NCBI GenBank assembly: GCA_049676965.1
Contig: JBAUBR010000097.1
Coordinates: forward strand, 606 to 64,605
Direction of reading: 5' to 3'
Source of the DNA: Terracidiphilus sp.
GTDB taxonomy: Bacteria > Acidobacteriota > Terriglobia > Terriglobales > Acidobacteriaceae
Length of the DNA stretch: 64,000 bases
Positions 54,627 to 64,000 of the stretch are shown here, piece after piece. Position 1 is the first letter of the stretch. Each line of letters begins with the position of its first letter. Under the pieces are notes generated by a model. The model saw nothing but the letters and a program-made list of their open reading frames with translations. It was not told the DNA's origin and ran no database searches. The position numbers and the translations under genes were made by a program.

Positions 54627-55103
54627 TCAAGTCTCTTGCAGCGAGGATCGCCGCGGATTGAGACTGTCGATCAGCTCGCCCACCGTCCCGATGAGCCGCG
54701 GCAGCGCAGCTTCGAGAGTGTCAGTGAGCGCATCGCCGTGTTCAAAGGATTTCCCCGCGATCGAAATCGTAAACGCGCGTGGGGAAACGCCATAAAGCTG
54801 CCGGCAGAGAGCGATGACTTGTTGCGGAGTGAGATGGTGCGAAGATTTCGCCGGCTGCCCGGAGGAGCCGATTTCAGCGACAACGATTTGGCCCGGTTCG
54901 CCGTCGCAGGCTGCATCGATAAAAATCAGATCGTCCGCACGGCTCGCATCTTCGGCAACCTCCGGCGTGAGCTGGTGAACGCAGAAAATCTCAGTTGAAG
55001 GAGCAGGGAACTCGCGCCGGAGCAGCTCGGCCGCATGCCACGCGATCCCATCGTCCGAGCGCAGCGGATTCCCGTAAGCGACGATCAGGATGCGAGGCGC
55101 CAT
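54627..55103 (-). CDS. hoxW: [NiFe]-hydrogenase maturation endopeptidase (HoxW/HycI family)
   Basis: [22 protein letters not shown]...IFIDA...HHLTP. The reading frame is open further upstream and continuous with the hoxH remnant. Confidence 0.75.
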
Positions 55104-55118
55104 CGGACTTCGGGCATC

Positions 55119-55316
55119 AATGCCGCAGATGCGCGCCATGAGCGAGGGCATCTCCGCGAACGGCCGCCCCTCGCAGAACTTTTCGAAGCCCCGGAACTGT
55201 GTCACATGGAAGCGGGCATCCTCGACCTTGCCCTCGTCGTTCAGGTGCAGCGTGATCTTGGAGTGGCCTTCGATGCGGGTCACCGGATCGATGACGATGG
55301 TTCTGCGCTCTGCCAT
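55119..55316 (-). pseudogene. hoxH: remnant (first 66 codons) of the [NiFe]-hydrogenase large subunit HoxH
   Basis: [23 protein letters not shown]...[11 protein letters not shown] stops inside the N-terminal Ni-binding RxCGxC motif. It continues in frame (DARSP) into the protease. Confidence 0.75.
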
Positions 55317-55319
55317 TTT

Positions 55320-55853
55320 TCACGCTCCAAAACGGGTTCGCGAACTCAACTCCGGCTGGCGCCCGGCGAGCAGTTCAGTCAGCGTGTAATGGATCACGTC
55401 GGCGGAAGGCGGACAACCTGGAATGAAGAGATCGACGGTCACCACTTCGTGAACCGGTCGCGCATATGGCAATAGACGAGGCACGATCTTGTCCGGAGTG
55501 CCCGGCGCAAGGGTGACATTTTCTCGATACGCGCGATCGTAGATCGCCTGCACCGGAAAGGGATTGCGCATCGCTGGAACATTCGCCGTCACAGCGCAAT
55601 CGCCCAGCGAAACCAGCAGCTTGGTCCGGCCGCGAATCGCCTTGATCTTGTGCAGATCCTCGTCGCTGCTCACCGCTCCTTCGACCAGGGTGATATCCAC
55701 ATCGGGAGGAAATTCCTTGGCATCCACCAGCGGGCTATAGACCAGTTCGACCAGCGCGGCAAGATCGATGAGGCGCTCGTCCATATCGAGGAACGACATG
55801 TGGCAGCCCGAGCAGCCGTCGAGCCAGACCGTGGCCAGCTTCTTCCTGCTCAT
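55320..55853 (-). CDS. hoxY: NAD-reducing [NiFe]-hydrogenase small subunit (NuoB-like)
   Basis: [17 protein letters not shown]...GDCA...PGCPP. Confidence 0.88.
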
Positions 55854-56569
55854 TCGTGCTCCTTGCGCATGATCGTCAAGTATGGGAGGAATTGACGCCG
55901 CTTCTCCATCTCCGCCACCGAGCGGCCTTTCTCAACCAATGCCCCCGTCGGGCACACCTGCACACATTTTCCGCAGCTGGTGCACGACTCCGACTCGCCC
56001 CAGGGTTGATTCAAGTCCGTGATCACCTTTGCCTCGATGCCGCGCCCCATCACGTCCCATGTGTGCGCGCCCTCGATCTCGTCGCACACGCGCACGCAAC
56101 GCGTGCACAGAATGCATCGATTGTGATCGAGGATGAAGCGGTCGTGCGAGGCATCCACCGTCTTCTTCGGGTATCGGTAAGGAAGATGAATGTGTGTCAC
56201 GCCTAGCGTCTGCGCCATGGTTTGCAGTTCGCAATGGTTGTTGGAGACGCAGACCGAACAAATATGGTTTCCCTCGCTGAACAAAAGCTCCACGATCATT
56301 TTGCGATAGTTTTGCAGGCGATCGGAACTGGTGGTGACCTCCATTCCTTCTTCAACAGCGGTCACGCAGGCGGGGAGCAGTTTGTTCGAGCCCTTCACTT
56401 CCACCAGGCACAGGCGGCACGCGCCCACGGTCGAAAGCCCTTCGAGCGCGCACAAGCGCGGGATGAAAACGCCGTTCTCTCGAGCGACATGGAGAATCGT
56501 CTCATCGGGCCGTGCGCTGCAGTCGCGGCCATCGATCTTGAGCGTCTTTACGCTGGTCGTCACACTCAT
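55850..56569 (-). CDS. hoxU: diaphorase Fe-S subunit (NuoG-N-terminal-like)
   Basis: A 2Fe-2S region ([10 protein letters not shown]) plus several 4Fe-4S Cys clusters. ATGA overlaps at both ends. Confidence 0.88.
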
Positions 56570-58212
56570 GCGCTTGCCTCTTCCAGGACTCTCGCGCGAC
56601 ACACGCCTGCAGGGCATCTCTGCTCATGAACGTGCGCCTTGTATTCCGCAATGAAATACTTCAGCGTGCTCAACACCGGGTTTGGCGCCGATTGGCCCAG
56701 GCCGCACAGGCTGGTGTGTTTCACCAGGTCGCAAAGCTCTTCCAGCAGCTTCAGATCCTGCTCCGTCGCGGACATATCCGTAATCGCGCTCAGGATTCTG
56801 TGCATCTGATACGTGCCCACGCGGCAGGGGACACACTTGCCGCAGGACTCGGTCATGCAGAAATCCATGAAATACTTCGCCACGTCCACCATGCAGGAGC
56901 TCTCGTCCATCACGATCATTCCGCCGGAGCCCATGATCGAGCCAGCCCTCGCCAGCGACTCATACTCCACCGGCATGTCGAGAGTTTCGGCCGGCAGGCA
57001 CCCTCCCGAAGGCCCGCCGGTCTGCACGGCCTTGAACTCCTTGCCCTCGGGAATGCCGCCGCCAATGTCGAACACCATCTCGCGCAACGTGATTCCCATT
57101 GGCACTTCGACCAGGCCGGTATTACGCACGCGCCCGGCCAGCGCAAACACCTTCGTACCTTTGCTCTTCTCGGTGCCGATCCGCGCGTACCACGCGCCTC
57201 CGTTACGAACGATGGGCGGCACGTTGGCGTAGGTTTCCACGTTGTTGATCAGAGTCGGCTGACCGAGCAGCCCCTCCATCGCGGGATACGGAGGCCGCGG
57301 ACGCGGCGTGCCGCGTTTGCCTTCGATCGACGCAATCAATGCCGTCTCTTCTCCGCAGACAAAGGCGCCCGCGCCAATGCGTATCTCGATGTGTAAGCTG
57401 AAGCCCGTTCCACAAATGTTTGCACCCAGCAGCCCGAGCCGCTCCGCCTGTCGGATCGCGGTCTTAAGCCGCTTGATCGCCAGCGGATACTCCGCGCGGA
57501 CATAGATGAAGCCTTCCGACGCGCCCACGGCGTGAGCTGCGACGAGCATTCCTTCCAGCACGCGATGCGGATCGCTCTCGAGCACGCTGCGATCCATGAA
57601 CGCTCCGGGATCGCCCTCATCCGCATTGCAAATGACGAATTTCTGTTTCCCCACGGCCTTTGCGACCGTGCTCCACTTCAGCCCCGTCGGGTAACCCGCG
57701 CCGCCGCGCCCGCGCAGTCCGCTGGTAGTGATCTCGGCGATCACTTCCTGTGGCGTCATCTCGGTCAAAACCTTCATCAGCGCGAGATACCCGTCGCGCG
57801 CAATGTACTCCTCGATCCGCTCCGGATCGATAACGCCGGAGTTTTCCAGTACGATCTTTCGCTGGCGCTGGAAGAACGGTGTGTCGGTGGGACAATGCAG
57901 GCGCGCGATCGGCTTCGCCTCCAGGCTGTCGAGCAGTTCGCCCGCATCGGCCGCGGACACATGCTGGTAAAGATGGCCGGTGCTGGTTGAGACCAGCGGT
58001 CCTTCGGAGCACAGTCCCATGCAGCCGACGCCTTTAATCTGGCACCGCTCGCCGGTCCCGCGACGCGCGACCTCGCCGGCGAGTGCGCTCTGAACCCCAT
58101 CGCTCTGGCATGAGAGGCATCCCGCGGCGACGCACACACTCACGCGCCGCGGAAACCTCTGCTGCGCTTCGCGTTCTTTTTCTGCAATCTCGTCGAGTTC
58201 GTCAGGAGTCAT
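56566..58212 (-). CDS. hoxF: diaphorase NAD/FMN-binding subunit (NuoF-like)
   Basis: 548 aa. [23 protein letters not shown], and [10 protein letters not shown]. Confidence 0.92.
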
Positions 58213-58708
58213 GGTGAGCCCACTTCTCGAGATGTCTGTGCAATGACCCGGTGTCGACTTTACCCGCGACTTCCTGGTCGTAGACCACCGCCGGCGCCAG
58301 TCCGCACGAGCCCAGGCAGCGGGCCGTCAGCAGCGAAATTTCGCCGTCCGCGGTGGTTTCGCCGGGAGCGATGTGCAAGCTTTCCCGCACCGCGTCGAAA
58401 AGATGCCGGGCTCCCTTGATGTAGCACGCGGTGCCAAGGCAAATCACACAGGTGTGCCTGCCGCCCGGCTTCAGCGTGAAGAAATGATAAAAAGTGGCGA
58501 CGCCGTAGGCGCGGCTGAGCGGCACATGCAGGCACAACGCCACGTAGCGCAAGGCTTCCTCATCGAGAAACCCAAAGGCCTCCTGCACGGTATGAAGCGT
58601 CTCAATCAGGCCATGCGAACTCCCGCCCGTCTTGCGCATGGTGGCGTCGACGAGTTTCCATCGCTTGTCGGTGTTGGGCGGCGCCGGCCTCGCCCCATAG
58701 ATCGCCAT
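58202..58708 (-). CDS. hoxE: diaphorase 2Fe-2S subunit (NuoE-like)
   Basis: [11 protein letters not shown]...[11 protein letters not shown]. Confidence 0.88.
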
Positions 58709-59277: not shown

Positions 59278-59579
59278 AGTGATTTTGGCCCCGCCGCACC
59301 GAACCGCATCTTTCCGCATAGAGCCGCCTATCCGCAATAAATAGATTGAGTTATACTGATCGCAAGCGAAGCAGAGTGCCGCATGCGACCGCATCTTTTC
59401 CGAAACCGAACGGACACCAGAACGGACACCAGAGCAATTATCCGCCACCTCGCCCACAAATACCCAAACAAGCAGGAATTGGGTCATTGTCCGCAATTTT
59501 CATCCCCTCCTCCGCCACTTGCGCTGATTCACTTGATCGCCAACCCACCCAAACATGCCCAAACACTTTGGAGCTTCGC

Positions 59580-60020
59580 ATGAAGATTGTCAGCCAGTCG
59601 GATCTCATGGAACGGGTCACCAAGGCCCGTTCCGGGTGCTGGATCTGGGAAGGCGCCAAGAGCAAAGAAGGTTACGGAGTGCTCCGTCTCGACAATGGCC
59701 AGCGCCAGGCGCCGCGTCTGTTTTGGGAGACTTTCGTAGGGCCGGTTCCTGAGGGATACACCGTACGCTCCCGGAAGCTTCCCGTCTGCGTCGGTAAAGC
59801 CTGTTGCAATCCTGCTCACCACCGGCTGCAGGGGCCGGTTGTCTGGACCGAATTCCCGGCCTGCAAAGAGGGCCATCTGTTGACTGCTGACAATGTCGTG
59901 ATCGAAAACCGCAATGGCCGGCTCTTCAAACGCTGCCGCATCTGTCGCCGGGAGGCATGGAAGGGCTGGCAGAAACAACACTCTTCCCCTGCCGGAGGTG
60001 GGAGGAAGAAATCAGAATGA
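59580..60020 (+). CDS. HNH_3/AP2-like endonuclease-family protein
   Basis: GGAG 6 nt before the ATG. GCWIWEGAKSKEGYGVLRL...CCNPAHH, then C..GH...N...RCRIC. The ORF-track TTG start at 59346 would add 78 aa translated from repeats. Confidence 0.7.
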   Translation: MKIVSQSDLMERVTKARSGCWIWEGAKSKEGYGVLRLDNGQRQAPRLFWETFVGPVPEGYTVRSRKLPVCVGKACCNPAHHRLQGPVVWTEFPACKEGHLLTADNVVIENRNGRLFKRCRICRREAWKGWQKQHSSPAGGGRKKSE

Positions 60021-60165: not shown

Positions 60166-60534
60166 CTATGAAGGTTGATCGGCGTGCTCAATTTGATTGA
60201 AAGACTCCTCGGAGAAGAGCCATTTCTGGTCAAGTGGTTCTTTGCGAGAACCAGGCGGGGAGTACTTGAGATAGCCGTGGTCAAACGCATACTTCTTTCC
60301 GCGGCCGTGTGCATTGCCGTGACATCCGTTGCATGTACAGGCCCGCGAGAGCCCATGCTTGTCGTTCGCATAGCAGCGAGGCGAGCAAAATGCTGCGTGC
60401 GGGATCGGACCGGCTGGTCCCGTTGCGGAGAGAATCGGATTCTTTGTTTCCAAGGTGCTGTTCGCCAACCGCACAAGCGTGTCATCCGCTCTTCCGTTCC
60501 GTCCTTGTCTCTGTTGCTGCTTAAAGATATCCAT
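60166..60534 (-). CDS. Cys/His-rich small protein, family unknown, last gene of the E2/E1-JAB operon
   Basis: 122 aa from MDIFKQQQ, with the core FCSPRCYANDKHGLSRACTCNGCHGNAHGRGKKYAFDHG. The start is 35 nt downstream of the JAB stop. The third-codon-position GC bias is coding-like. Confidence 0.5.
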   Translation of the reverse strand: MDIFKQQQRQGRNGRADDTLVRLANSTLETKNPILSATGPAGPIPHAAFCSPRCYANDKHGLSRACTCNGCHGNAHGRGKKYAFDHGYLKYSPPGSRKEPLDQKWLFSEESFNQIEHADQPS

Positions 60535-60569
60535 TCCGCCCTTTTGTGTTTGCACGATTCGATCCAACG

Positions 60570-61091
60570 CTAGGAGTCCAGGACGATCTCCGACTCGCCT
60601 TGACCACAATAGAGCGACATAAACAAGCCAACTGGAAATCGTTCGGTCCCCGCGATCAGCAAAATGAAGCCATTCAGATGATGCTTCGAATCTCTGACCG
60701 CGTGACGGATACTTCGAATGTCAGACGCGGATGGCCGAGGGTGCGGTTCCGGGTGAGTGTGCCAATCGCCAATAAAGTGCAGCCCGCGTCCATGCAACGC
60801 GTCAATTTCTTCCTGTTCATGCCTACGATCCGGTACATAGCCGTACCGGGATCGACGATCGGATATCCTAGGTCCCGTTGCGTGTTCGACACGAATCTCT
60901 TCATCAGTAAAGCGAGCAAATAATTGTCCGCCTGCCTCCGCTGAGAAGGACTCGATCTGTTGGAACATTGCTATATGGTTGAGAACAGTTGGTGTGAAGA
61001 CGAGGCGCTGTCCGGAGTTTCCGATCCTGAAGCGAAGGCTGCGCCAGTAGCGCTTCCACCGCAGACCGGGCAGAGTTCGTCCTTCCGCCAT
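60570..61091 (-). CDS. JAB/MPN+ (JAMM) metallopeptidase, Cap3-like
   Basis: E-x-GG (FSAEAGGQLFARF) and H-x-H-x7-S-x2-D (HTHPEPHPRPSASD). I placed the start at ATG 61091 (MAEGRT) so the first beta-strand (RLVFTPTVL) is included. The ORF track opens at a GTG at 61316. Confidence 0.8.
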   Translation of the reverse strand: MAEGRTLPGLRWKRYWRSLRFRIGNSGQRLVFTPTVLNHIAMFQQIESFSAEAGGQLFARFTDEEIRVEHATGPRISDRRSRYGYVPDRRHEQEEIDALHGRGLHFIGDWHTHPEPHPRPSASDIRSIRHAVRDSKHHLNGFILLIAGTERFPVGLFMSLYCGQGESEIVLDS

Positions 61092-62857
61092 TCGAGCTCC
61101 TCTTGGAATCCGCCACACTCTCGTTCTGGGTGCCCAACTAACCATGTCTGAGACCACTTGCCTCCTGACTCGACCAAAAGTGCGTGCGGGCCAGCCCAGA
61201 CCCGATGAACAGTTCGATGAACCTTTCCTAACAGAGAATCTAACGCCAAAGATGCGGATAACGATAGAGCCGCTTGCAATTCCACCGGACCATACGGTTG
61301 GAAAATCGCGCCGCACGCAGGCTCGTGACGCGTTTCATCGCCTTCCGGCCATTCCGTGACGTTGGCGCGCGCTTTGCCTCCCAGTGTCATACCGCATTGA
61401 AGGCAGGGGCTCGACGAAAAAAGTAAGACTGCATGTCCCGCACAGGCGTGCGCCTCGGTCCAGGTGTAGAGAACAGGTCCAGTAAACTCCCCTTGAACAT
61501 GCTGAAGATTTAAGAGACTTTCTGCTTCCCATTCTGCCGTAGCCGAGATAATCAAATCAGCGTCCCGCATGGCGGGGAAATCCCTCAATGCCAACTCTTC
61601 ATAAGAGGCATTGAATCCTCGAATTGAGGCATGCGGATAGCTTCGCTGTAGCTTTTCAGCAAGCGCCTCTGCCTTGTTTCGTCCGACGTATTCTGCACCA
61701 AGCGGATGTCGCCCAATGTTTGCCCAATCGAGAGTTCCCGGATCAACGAGATCCAAGTGCCCGATCCCTGACATCACTAAATGCTGCGCTATCGGCGCTC
61801 CAACCGAACCGCAGCCGATAACAATTACCCTCTTCTTCGATAACCTCGCGTGATGTAGATCGTACCCACGACCATGAATCCACGCGGAATCCACGCGCAC
61901 TACCTTTAAACGCGATGCTGAACTGGCGTCCGAAAATAACCGCGAAGTCACGATGGATTCCGGAACCTTGCCCGGCCGAAAGCCGTTCAACGTGCCGTTT
62001 CGTCTTTTTCCTCGGACGTCCACGCTTGACGATGTGCGTGTCACGACGCCTGCCAGACACGGGCCGTTTCCACTGTCTGCTCCCAGAATGAAATAGAAGC
62101 GATTCTTTCCCTTGCGGCTGAACTGTTCCAAGAGAAGTTTGCCACCTGACGTCATTTGGGCCAGACGGTAGATGTCACCCGCGGTACGCGGATACTGTTT
62201 CGGAAGCAGCGCCTTAGGGAGCCAAAGAAAGCAAGCCAAATCGGTCGAGTCGAACTGGGGCTGCTTGCCATAGGAGTGCTGTAACCAGGAGAGTACCTTT
62301 TCTTCAGACTCCCCAACCACCGACCAGGCTTCCCCTCGCCATATCCGAACAAGTCTGCAAGGGCCGTCTGAGGCCAGCAAGCTGTAGATCCAGCCGGGTG
62401 ATTCTTCTAAGTCGCGATTCCAATAGGAGTAAAACTCAGTTCGAAAATCGTCCTCGTTGGAGCCTGCTTCACACGCGCAGATTAAATCCACCGCTTGGCC
62501 CAGCAGAATTCCCGCGGCTTCCGCTGGATGATCGGGTTTCGCTACTTTATTCTCAGCCTGGAGGCACAGACGGCCATCCTCTTCGATATGCGGCCACGTG
62601 AGGAACTCCGGGCGGTCCATCAGGAAGAAATGGGGCAAAGAGAAGGGGAACCGATGATCCAGCAAGACCTGGAGGCGCCTCGTCATCAGGACGGTCTCGA
62701 TGTGAAACTCCCAACCAGCGGTCAATGATCCAATCCGATATGCTCCGACTTCCTCCGGAGTCAGTCGGCGCGCGTTGCACACTTGTGTCAGGAAGGAATC
62801 GAGTTTGCAAATTCCTTCCTGACACAAGCGGACCGCGACGCTGGCCGTTTCAGGCAT
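60971..62857 (-). CDS. E2 (UBC-like) / E1 (ThiF-like) fusion protein, Cap2-like
   Basis: 628 aa. The E2-like active-site context is WPHIEEDGRLCLQ (Cys98). The E1 Rossmann region is RVIVIGCGSVGAPIAQHLVMSGIGHLDLVDPGTLDWANIGRH. Zinc pairs are CLQC and CPVC. Confidence 0.85.
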   Translation of the reverse strand: MPETASVAVRLCQEGICKLDSFLTQVCNARRLTPEEVGAYRIGSLTAGWEFHIETVLMTRRLQVLLDHRFPFSLPHFFLMDRPEFLTWPHIEEDGRLCLQAENKVAKPDHPAEAAGILLGQAVDLICACEAGSNEDDFRTEFYSYWNRDLEESPGWIYSLLASDGPCRLVRIWRGEAWSVVGESEEKVLSWLQHSYGKQPQFDSTDLACFLWLPKALLPKQYPRTAGDIYRLAQMTSGGKLLLEQFSRKGKNRFYFILGADSGNGPCLAGVVTRTSSSVDVRGKRRNGTLNGFRPGKVPESIVTSRLFSDASSASRLKVVRVDSAWIHGRGYDLHHARLSKKRVIVIGCGSVGAPIAQHLVMSGIGHLDLVDPGTLDWANIGRHPLGAEYVGRNKAEALAEKLQRSYPHASIRGFNASYEELALRDFPAMRDADLIISATAEWEAESLLNLQHVQGEFTGPVLYTWTEAHACAGHAVLLFSSSPCLQCGMTLGGKARANVTEWPEGDETRHEPACGAIFQPYGPVELQAALSLSASLALDSLLGKVHRTVHRVWAGPHALLVESGGKWSQTWLVGHPERECGGFQEELEWRKDELCPVCGGSATGAAFASGSETPDSASSSHQLFSTI

Positions 62858-63590
62858 ACCGACTATTACCGCCCTTCTGAACTGCCTCAGCTTCGGCAGC
62901 CTTGCGGCGGATGTCGTCGACGAGCGGCCTCGTCAGCACATACGGGGCCCCGATGGATGCCTGCTTTACAGACCTCCGGAGTGCTTGATCGGAAAGTGTG
63001 AACTCCATGGGTGTCGGACTAGCCTCGGTCGGATTCTCTCCCGTACAGAGAAATTCTCCCTTGGCACCTTTGACGATGAATTCATACTCCTTTTTCGCCG
63101 CCTGGCTCGGCGGGTCGCAGTCGTCGTCCTTGATCGCACGGCTGCTTGAGACGACGCGGCCGCCATCGCGAATCTGTGACAGCGCCGACTTGGCATCAGG
63201 TGAAACCTTCGCCTTATCTCCGAGATCGGAACGACTGTCGTACGACAAGGAATGCCAGGAGCAATGGTGCGGAGTTTGAAGAAGATCGTACTTGAGCACA
63301 GCCGGGGCCTGCTTGTGCTTGGCCCACAGTTTCTCCCAAATAATTACTTCGGCATCGCCACCGCTGAGGAAGTTCTTGACGGTCTTGCGGCCTTCATCGT
63401 CTGCAAGCTCCATGTTCAAAATGACGCTGGAGTGGTTCTTGCGGTACTCTTCTTCTTCCTCATCACTCTCGGACTTCGGCATGGGGGCGAGCAGCCGCCC
63501 CTTGAAGACCTTGCTCTCTGAGCCATTCACCTTTGTGATGTCCTGATCGACTTTCACAACGATTGCCAGAATGTCATCCGTCTTCCCCAT
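62850..63590 (-). CDS. MBL-like protein resembling the C-terminal two thirds of a ComEC/Rec2-type metallo-beta-lactamase domain, with a C-terminal ...KGGNSRYA tail
   Basis: NHSSVILNMEL...FLSGGDAE...YDLLQTPHHCSWHS...VVSSSRAI...DPP...LCTGE parallels N.S.VL / LLTGD.E / LKVPHHGS / ISSG / HP / T. No HxHxDH motif is present. Its stop overlaps the E2/E1 ATG by 8 nt. Confidence 0.65.
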   Translation of the reverse strand: MGKTDDILAIVVKVDQDITKVNGSESKVFKGRLLAPMPKSESDEEEEEYRKNHSSVILNMELADDEGRKTVKNFLSGGDAEVIIWEKLWAKHKQAPAVLKYDLLQTPHHCSWHSLSYDSRSDLGDKAKVSPDAKSALSQIRDGGRVVSSSRAIKDDDCDPPSQAAKKEYEFIVKGAKGEFLCTGENPTEASPTPMEFTLSDQALRRSVKQASIGAPYVLTRPLVDDIRRKAAEAEAVQKGGNSRYA

Positions 63591-63812
63591 CCAACACTCT
63601 CAAACGATCAACGCAAGATTGTCGAAGCCGACTACTGCATGGAGGCCGGACAGTTAAACCTTCGTGTCCAAGAAGCACTTCTTCTCTATCATTTGGATCA
63701 TCTCGGTCTTCTTGAGCTGCCAGAGAATCCGAGGAAACACCTTAGTCTCAAGAATCGTGATGCTCTCCGGCCGTTTTTTCAAAAACACGGCATCAAGCAA
63801 GGATGAGGAAAG

Positions 63813-64000
63813 ATGGCAAAGTCTCTCAAACAAAAGAACCAACCACAACTGATCACCTTCGTCGTCTCGAATGCGATCGGCTTAGGTTTGATTGCTTTGG
63901 GCCCGTCCCGGCTTCTCGCCGTTCTTCAGGAGCTTTCGAAAGGCGACTGGACGATACTCGGTAAGCTAATCGCCATTCCAGCCTTCCTGTCGCTGATCAC
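63813..64000 (+). CDS. partial ORF running off the window, hydrophobic N-terminus (possible membrane protein)
   Basis: The ATG at 63813 is preceded by GGATGAGGAAAG. It translates to MAKSLKQKNQPQLITFVVSNAIGLGLIALGP...IAIPAFLSLI. It is divergent from the E2/E1 operon. Only 62 codons are visible. Confidence 0.3.
   Translation, partial: MAKSLKQKNQPQLITFVVSNAIGLGLIALGPSRLLAVLQELSKGDWTILGKLIAIPAFLSLI

Follow-up and report, generated by a model that had tools for sequence, protein, structure and literature searches.

Known systems and the locus

Operons in which a metallo-β-lactamase (MBL)-fold protein is encoded together with E2, E1 and JAB functions were classified as operon type 6a by Iyer, Burroughs and Aravind, whose list includes Xanthomonas citri, Gluconobacter oxydans 621H, Polaromonas naphthalenivorans CJ2 and Clostridium perfringens (Iyer et al., 2006; PMC1779556). 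Later papers, with reference to van den Berg et al. (2024), name 6A-MBL as a system that defends against phages, including jumbo phages, and mention is also made of "MBL pathways related to Type II CBASS" (cyclic-oligonucleotide-based antiphage signaling system). NCBIfam holds equivalog models for the system, i.e., NF058524 ("anti-phage 6A-MBL system MBL-fold protein", 6A-MBL_enzyme) and NF058523 ("6A-MBL_cap2_3"). A search of the literature for Cap2/Cap3 in combination with an MBL protein yielded no further mechanistic paper. Here, we describe a related locus on the minus strand at positions 60570-63590 of a 64-kb stretch of Terracidiphilus sp. DNA, which is called the window below; all unqualified coordinates refer to the whole window. 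The locus very probably represents an anti-phage operon of the 6A-MBL type that was inactivated by a deletion.

The cassette consists of three minus-strand open reading frames (ORFs), 62850-63590 (246 aa), 60971-62857 (628 aa) and 60570-61316 (up to 248 aa), which correspond to the MBL-like protein, a Cap2-type E2-E1 fusion and a Cap3-type JAB protein, respectively. The MBL stop codon and the E2-E1 ATG share 8 nt (62850..62857). The ORF coordinates agree with the original prediction as far as it described three co-directional, overlapping genes with this 8-nt overlap. It also treated the MBL-like protein as the product of a whole gene and proposed a new conjugation system, an undescribed variant of bacterial ubiquitin-like signalling, and here it has to be revised. 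The MBL ORF is the 3' remnant of a gene for a 412-aa protein and covers only positions 150-344 of NF058524, and the locus is a damaged copy of a described system, known as operon type 6a since 2006, later as 6A-MBL, and represented by NCBIfam models.

Like described 6A-MBL systems, the locus combines an MBL protein of the same family, encoded directly upstream, with E2, E1 and JAB functions; a WYL regulator gene in divergent orientation often accompanies them, and the MBL tail ends in a small residue. In contrast to those systems, the E2-E1 and JAB proteins of the window are encoded by two genes and not by a triple-module cap2_3 gene (NF058523), the E2 domain is of the Prok-E2_B and not of the Prok-E2_A type, and the MBL tail in the clade of the window is ...RYA without an extension and not PRAG, PHG or TYG followed by 1-4 residues. 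In addition, the copy in the window is truncated. With Type II CBASS (Ledvina 2023; Jenson 2023), the locus shares the PADLOC Cap2 and Cap3 clusters, the catalytic cysteines, the adenylation site and a tail, ...SRYA, that resembles ...GRFA of the CBASS enzyme CdnD; C-terminal conjugation that is reversed by a JAB peptidase is presumably shared as well. However, it is devoid of a CD-NTase (cGAS/DncV-like nucleotidyltransferase) and of a recognizable cyclic-nucleotide-sensing effector, and an MBL-fold hydrolase takes the position of the CD-NTase. Thus, judged from their sequences, the acidobacterial systems have an MBL of the 6A type, and their Cap2 and Cap3, which are separate proteins, belong to the CBASS clade. 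The divergent gene with WHD_BrxR, WYL and BrxR_CTD domains directly upstream in intact relatives recalls CapW-controlled CBASS and BrxR-controlled bacteriophage exclusion (BREX) systems, but only its last ~74 codons are left in the window. The Bil/Bub systems also use E1, E2 and JAB chemistry in anti-phage defence, but their E1 and E2 are individual proteins and are accompanied by a β-grasp ubiquitin-like protein (Ubl), whereas this locus encodes an E2-E1 fusion and is devoid of a Ubl gene.

Truncation of the MBL gene by a deletion

A search with the 246-aa ORF (62850..63590, minus strand) retrieved 981 homologues, and among the best 120, almost every one has a length of 410-412 aa. The ORF aligns to the C-terminal 59% of the 412-aa homologues (residues ~169-412) with 93% identity over the remnant, and its first three codons (MGK, from the ATG at 63590) originate across the deletion junction described below. 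In a comparison with NF058524, the ORF is recognizably homologous (E 7.4e-61) and aligns to profile positions 150-344 of 346, but its score of 206.2 bits is below the cutoff of 220 and positions 1-149, including the metal motif, are gone; an intact orthologue (P0001) scores 423.5 bits. Full-length members of the family start with FFPVxNGDMTL...ILxDCNI...HPDQDH, the last part being the MBL motif-2 region, and none of this is found in the window. The remnant has kept GGDAE, PHHCSWH and the C-terminal ...KGGNSRYA tail and is without the N-terminal half bearing H73-x-D-x-D77-H78. Nine residues, H73, D77, H78, E137, R140, R141, D245, H274 and H275, are invariant in the family, and the first six of these (H73-R141) fall within the part that was deleted.

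The deletion was delineated by comparison with metagenomic contig L003, the relatives being 91-96% identical to the window. Positions 64000..63583 of the window are collinear with L003 8802-9220, and the window from 63582 downward is collinear with L003 from 10507 onward. Hence, 1,286 bp (L003 9221-10506) are missing from the window. The junction (63583|63582), which shows a 2-nt AA microhomology and reads GGATGGGGAA|GACGGATGAC, sits 8 nt inside the MBL ORF. The deleted DNA comprises codons 1 to ~227 of the 301-aa regulator, a 98-bp divergent intergenic region, which must hold both divergent promoters, and MBL codons 1-168. In the alignment, the ATG at 63590 falls on the side of the junction that belongs to the regulator gene, of which it is antisense sequence; hence, it is a chance start codon. 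When the deleted segment was sought elsewhere in the window, it was not found. A transfer of the 5' half of the MBL gene by insertion or rearrangement was rejected, as both flanks align collinearly with intact loci and the window does not contain the segment. Its presence beyond the window end is unlikely as well, because a contig that extends there (L033, see below) contains p224, which encodes a small membrane protein, a gene for a 262-aa protein and an AbiJ-like gene.

Two Logan contigs from different runs, L033 (SRR28061177) and L034 (SRR27973877), are both 100% identical to the window. L033 spans the junction and continues 2.5 kb past the window end, and L034 covers Cap2 and Cap3 and ends short of the junction. 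Because these separate assemblies are identical to the window and L033 crosses the junction, the deletion allele appears real. The truncated MBL gene is found only in this allele, whereas the gene is full-length in 16 of 16 other loci. With six invariant residues, the promoter and the regulator deleted, the MBL copy of the window is probably catalytically dead. As the deletion removed the DNA-binding and WYL domains of the regulator, the promoter region and the N-terminal 168 residues of MBL, the cassette as a whole is very probably non-functional, even though Cap2 and Cap3 are intact.

The Cap2- and Cap3-type proteins

The 628-aa protein (60971..62857, minus strand), which looks intact, contains a Prok-E2_B domain at residues 61-149 (Pfam 4.9e-14) and a ThiF/E1 domain at residues 337-492 (1.1e-24). 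Along its entire length, it is matched by the PADLOC CBASS "E1-E2" model PDLC00836 (3e-192), and its top sequence matches in the PDB are the Cap2 entries 7tsq, 7tsx and 7to3. The motifs on which its original assignment as Cap2-like was based are all in place: WPHIEEDGRLCLQ at 88-100, including Cys98, IGCGSVG at 347-353, DLVDPGTLDWANIGRH at 369-384, and the CxxC pairs CLQC (485-488) and CPVC (596-599). In an alignment of eight Cap2 sequences, i.e., the one from the window and seven others, one of which is from a canonical CBASS, C98, the GxGSxG loop (G348-x-G350-S351-x-G353), D372, N380, R383, K395 and C515 are invariant. The last of these is located in the sequence PACGxxFQPYG and is the putative E1 cysteine of Cap2. 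Thus, both catalytic cysteines and the adenylation site that characterize Cap2 of Type II CBASS are present in the protein of the window.

The profile scores place this protein with the Cap2 proteins of CBASS. Against PDLC00836, it scores similarly (3e-192) to Cap2 of L018 (2.9e-187), a locus of Thalassospira that contains a canonical Type II CBASS and was used as a positive control, whereas the fused proteins of X. citri and Acinetobacter match Cap2 models only at ~1e-19. Against NF058523, which has a cutoff of 320 bits, the window protein scores 71 bits and the L018 protein 61 bits.

The next ORF had been proposed to encode a JAMM peptidase like Cap3, and the motifs and the Pfam and PADLOC profiles support this. 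It carries AEAGG and HTHPEPHPRPSASD, which together make up the metal site E-x-GG + H-T-H-x(7)-S-x-S-D, and it matches Prok-JAB of Pfam (1.5e-11) and the PADLOC JAB model PDLC00891 (4.3e-58); against the NCBIfam Cap3 model NF050170, it scores only 68.8 bits (5.8e-19), with a cutoff of 200. Position 2 of the PDLC00891 profile aligns with residue 94 of the longest possible ORF. Similarity to the Cap3 profiles and to Cap3 of other loci, including the CBASS locus L018, starts 5' of the Cap2 stop codon. Since the homology begins there, the ATG at 61091, with AGGAG 6 nt 5' of it, is most likely the start codon; the predicted gene (60570..61091, minus strand) then encodes 173 aa and overlaps the 3' end of the Cap2 gene by 121 nt.

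Conservation of the operon in relatives

In intact relatives, p224 follows a gene for a WYL/BrxR-type regulator, and the genes for MBL (412 aa), Cap2 (~625 aa) and Cap3 (~170 aa) are arranged divergently in this order. This layout is carried by the genome of Terriglobus roseus, which has the BrxR-type gene, MBL, Cap2 and Cap3, by a contig of a metagenome-assembled genome from ENA, by four JGI/ENA contigs with P0002 and by twelve further Acidobacteriota genome contigs. Identity to the window across the loci amounts to 69-100% for MBL and 50-100% for Cap2. The MBL gene lies directly upstream of and co-directional with the E1, E2 and JAB functions in 16 acidobacterial loci, 11 IMG/VR loci, five plasmid loci and the window. 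The trio itself, MBL-Cap2-Cap3 with stop and start codons that overlap, is shared by the 16 acidobacterial loci and the distant IMG/VR loci L025 and L027. Conservation of the neighbourhood, which was put forward with the original prediction as a check, is thereby confirmed.

Also the components reported as missing from the locus are indeed absent, here and in the 16 related loci. A CD-NTase gene was found neither in this part of the window nor in any of the related loci (the 16 acidobacterial ones, L025 and L027). Cyclic-nucleotide effectors, i.e., patatin, endonuclease, TIR or SAVED proteins, were not seen either, the sole candidate being p224, and the ORF lists, gene calls and family searches of the proteins of the cassette did not reveal a β-grasp Ubl gene. 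The only relative without MBL that was recovered is L018, which has 31% identity in Cap2 and contains genes for patatin, a DncV-like nucleotidyltransferase (2.9e-21), Cap2 and Cap3.

The same type of MBL protein is found on plasmids. A tblastn search of plasmids with the MBL sequence yielded 278 records, including those of X. citri, G. oxydans 621H, P. naphthalenivorans CJ2 and C. perfringens. On pCuR of X. citri, pAS80-1 of Acinetobacter, pSE11-2 of Escherichia coli, and Klebsiella and C. perfringens plasmids, the MBL gene is followed by a gene for a fused ThiF/JAB protein of 726-760 aa, and a divergent WYL gene is located 5' of the MBL gene wherever the annotation is complete. The intact orthologous MBL is 52-58% identical to the MBL proteins of the X. 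citri, Acinetobacter and E. coli plasmids. On pAS80-1 (L021 8492-9562), a second, different MBL-fold gene is located right after the fused cap2_3 gene and matches the PADLOC candidate PDC-M48B (7e-153); thus, two MBL-based modules lie side by side there.

Fold and tail of the MBL protein and possible mechanism

Neither the remnant nor the full-length MBL protein has a match in Pfam, and the identification therefore came from NCBIfam, PADLOC and a fold search. A sequence search of the PDB gave only a marginal match to ComEC (E 0.37). With an AlphaFold2 (AF2) model, the best match in Foldseek was the MBL domain of ComEC (9ic4; E 5e-12, TM-score of 0.70 on the target), followed by Pce, PNGM-1, phosphodiesterase tw9814, RNase Z and the anti-Pycsar nuclease Apyc1. 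Since the modelled fold is closest to ComEC-type and phosphodiesterase-type MBLs, the reaction catalyzed is most likely the hydrolysis of phosphodiester bonds in a nucleic acid or a nucleotide. Among the members of the family, P0124 and P0160 are fused C-terminally to an AGS-C sensor domain (PF18134), as are some CD-NTases and cyclases, and P0128 (1166 aa) contains MBL, Prok-E2_A, ThiF and JAB modules in a single polypeptide.

The tail of the MBL protein is very conserved. It reads ...RYA in 111 of 111 close homologues, and among 74 diverse full-length members of the family, 54 have G or A as the last residue; most of the family has [HY]G or YA at the end. Some members have 1-4 extra residues after HG or YG, like precursors of Ubls. 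In the AF2 model (pLDDT 84.5), the tail (residues 401-412) is disordered with pLDDT values below 50. CdnD of Enterobacter cloacae, a proven substrate of Cap2 whose C-terminus was seen adenylated in the active site of Cap2, ends in ...KTGRFA (Ledvina preprint). Furthermore, the type of tail varies with that of the conjugation enzyme: split Cap2 and Cap3 are accompanied by tails that read ...[RG]YA up to the stop codon (Acidobacteria, L025 and L027), and fused Cap2_3 by ...PRAG, ...PHG or ...TYG with 1-4 further residues. As the tail is invariant, disordered and similar to that of CdnD and covaries with the conjugation enzyme, the MBL-fold protein is the prime candidate for the substrate of conjugation. 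The role of MBL as the conjugated partner, as suggested in the original prediction, is thereby supported at the level of the family, and it matches the published view.

By analogy with Type II CBASS, the E1 domain of Cap2 would adenylate the exposed C-terminal Ala412 of MBL, which would then be carried as a thioester on Cys515 and subsequently on Cys98. Ligation of MBL to a target may result in a primed or localized enzyme, and Cap3 would undo the conjugation. In clades whose tails have extra residues after G, removal of these residues is probably a further task of the JAB domain. The WYL protein probably represses the operon until induction, as CapW and BrxR do.

Alternative explanations

Several observations weigh against inactivation of the operon by the deletion. 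Cap2 and Cap3 are still full length, and the ratio of non-synonymous to synonymous substitutions (dN/dS) in the comparison with L003 is low in all three genes (0.12 for the MBL remnant, 0.16 for Cap2 and 0.17 for Cap3), so that no signal of decay is seen in the sequence; these ratios mostly reflect the history before the deletion and can neither date nor confirm pseudogenisation. The deletion may be recent, or read-through transcription may still lead to expression of Cap2 and Cap3. A simple σ70 scan gave nothing relevant on the minus strand, such a scan being not informative for Acidobacteria, and a promoter and terminator scan revealed nothing above the expectation from shuffled sequences. 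The motif-2 variant of the MBL family, H-P-D-x-D-H, is atypical. One could go further and consider the 246-aa protein as a complete MBL-like effector in a functional and previously undescribed Ubl-type conjugation system. The co-directional, overlapping ORFs, the apparently intact catalytic sites of Cap2 and Cap3 and the conjugatable tail of the remnant would fit with this idea. However, the ORF is without the 168 N-terminal residues that are found in ~900 homologues, including H73, D77 and H78, its ATG comes from the far side of the junction, the promoter region is gone, and a system of this kind has already been described, which makes the idea hardly credible.

The truncation could also be an assembly artefact or a chimera in an organism with an intact operon. 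Mis-joins at short repeats do occur in metagenomes, the microhomology at the junction being just 2 nt, and a second in-frame deletion, ~8 kb away in a hydrogenase operon, could hint at a collapsed assembly. But the separately assembled L033 and L034 are 100% identical to the window, with L033 crossing the junction, and both flanks are collinear with L003, L007 and L001, as a simple deletion predicts; hence, an artefact is very unlikely. Finally, the locus might be a degenerate Type II CBASS that has lost its CD-NTase and effector, with the MBL gene as an unrelated neighbour. In PADLOC, Cap2 and Cap3 cluster with the canonical CBASS pair, and Cap2 scores far below the NCBIfam cap2_3 cutoff (71 versus 320 bits). 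Nevertheless, this scenario is highly improbable given the conservation of MBL-Cap2-Cap3 in 16 acidobacterial loci, L025 and L027, none of which has a CD-NTase, the true CBASS content of control locus L018, with patatin and a DncV-like nucleotidyltransferase, and the mimicry of a CD-NTase tail by the MBL tail. We therefore hold to a 6A-MBL-type operon inactivated by a deletion.

The regulator and the membrane protein p224

The 3' remnant of the WYL/BrxR-type (CapW-like) regulator gene is located on the plus strand at 63583..63806, as identified by comparison with L003, and comprises ~74 codons and a stop codon. It is 87% identical to residues 218-301 of the BrxR-type protein of L003 and ends in ...RPFFQKHGIKQG*. 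In L033, a 55-aa ORF with a weak match to BrxR_CTD was called over the remnant. The intact regulators of relatives are 291-301 aa long, divergently encoded and composed of WHD_BrxR, WYL and BrxR_CTD domains. A BrxR-type gene is found in every other locus that reaches far enough upstream, and it is split into two ORFs in L015.

Beyond the regulator remnant, the first 62 codons of p224 (63813..64000, plus strand) are present before the gene leaves the window end; they are 97% identical to residues 1-62 of p224 of L003. The p224 protein, which has a size of ~215-225 aa and 86 homologues, follows the regulator gene in the acidobacterial loci, and the 214-aa neighbour in T. roseus is not similar to it in sequence. 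Hydropathy and an AF2 model (pLDDT 81.7) indicate that the protein is all-helical, with a pair of hydrophobic helices at either terminus. No match for p224 was found in Pfam, NCBIfam or PADLOC, and the model has no significant match in the PDB (best E 0.33). A role as a SLATT- or S-4TM-like effector is not supported, as there is no family or fold match.

Small proteins of 172-224 aa with several predicted transmembrane (TM) helices and without assignment to a known family are encoded beside the WYL regulator/MBL operon in Acidobacteria, Xanthomonas, E. coli, Klebsiella and Clostridium (L003 8315-8989, L020 3340-3975, L035 2481-2999, L037 3216-3890 and L002 8232-8876). The one of X. citri is 36% identical to p224, and those of T. 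roseus, E. coli, Klebsiella and C. perfringens show no significant similarity to it. Such a small TM protein could be a component of 6A-MBL loci, e.g., an effector.

These neighbours lead to a possibility that we regard as rather unlikely. The intact acidobacterial relatives may form a hybrid sub-type, so far without an explicit description, in which a 6A-type MBL was captured by a CBASS-clade split Cap2/Cap3 and gained a CD-NTase-like ...RYA tail; perhaps the four-TM protein would then be the effector, and MBL would generate or process a signal and not be the killer. Hints in this direction are the presence of unrelated small multi-TM neighbours in the taxa listed above and the AGS-C fusions in the MBL family, which allow, but do not establish, a CBASS-like combination of a signalling enzyme with a membrane effector.

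Genomic context

The low-coordinate flank of the cassette contains a hydrogenase operon and is not a defence island. The suggestion in the original prediction that the locus lies in a defence island thus fails on this side and finds support only on the side that the window does not cover. There, past the high-coordinate window end and beyond p224, L033 contains genes for a 262-aa protein without a family match and for an AbiJ_NTD4 protein (L033 91-930, 1149-1937), the latter of which matches the PADLOC candidate PDC-S32 (4.3e-21). The AbiJ-like gene indicates a defence-island context on that side. No tRNA gene or obvious integration site was found within the window.

The hydrogenase operon is of the hox type (54627-58708), and its upstream HoxE-, HoxF-, HoxU- and HoxY-like genes look intact. 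At 54627-55316 (minus strand), a second large in-frame deletion is found in place of the large subunit of the [NiFe] hydrogenase. It has left a 229-aa ORF composed of the first ~63 residues of the large subunit (NF033181 2-63 of 507) and a complete maturation protease (TIGR00072 1-142 of 145). Between Cap3 and this operon, an ORF at 59346-60020 (plus strand) shows a weak match to HNH_3 (E 0.063) and a C-x-I-W-E-G...C-C-N-P-x-H-H pattern and is possibly a homing or HNH endonuclease. Downstream of Cap3, ~270 bp (L003 13629-13898; window ~60467-60570), including part of a 69-aa ORF (L003 13560-13769), are missing from the window and retained in L003-L006.

Significance

The locus in the window is of little weight by itself, as it is a decayed copy of a system that was catalogued in 2006 and has been cited as anti-phage since 2024. 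The comparison of its relatives yields three points of modest weight for research on bacterial ubiquitin-like conjugation. The covariation between the MBL tail and the E1-E2 partner constitutes good in silico support for MBL as the conjugated substrate, and the combinations found point to an exchange of conjugation modules between CBASS and MBL systems. Besides, a small membrane protein recurs beside 6A-MBL operons. The deletion allele, in turn, represents a natural case of the loss of a defence system, in which a single event took the regulator, the promoter and the enzyme together.

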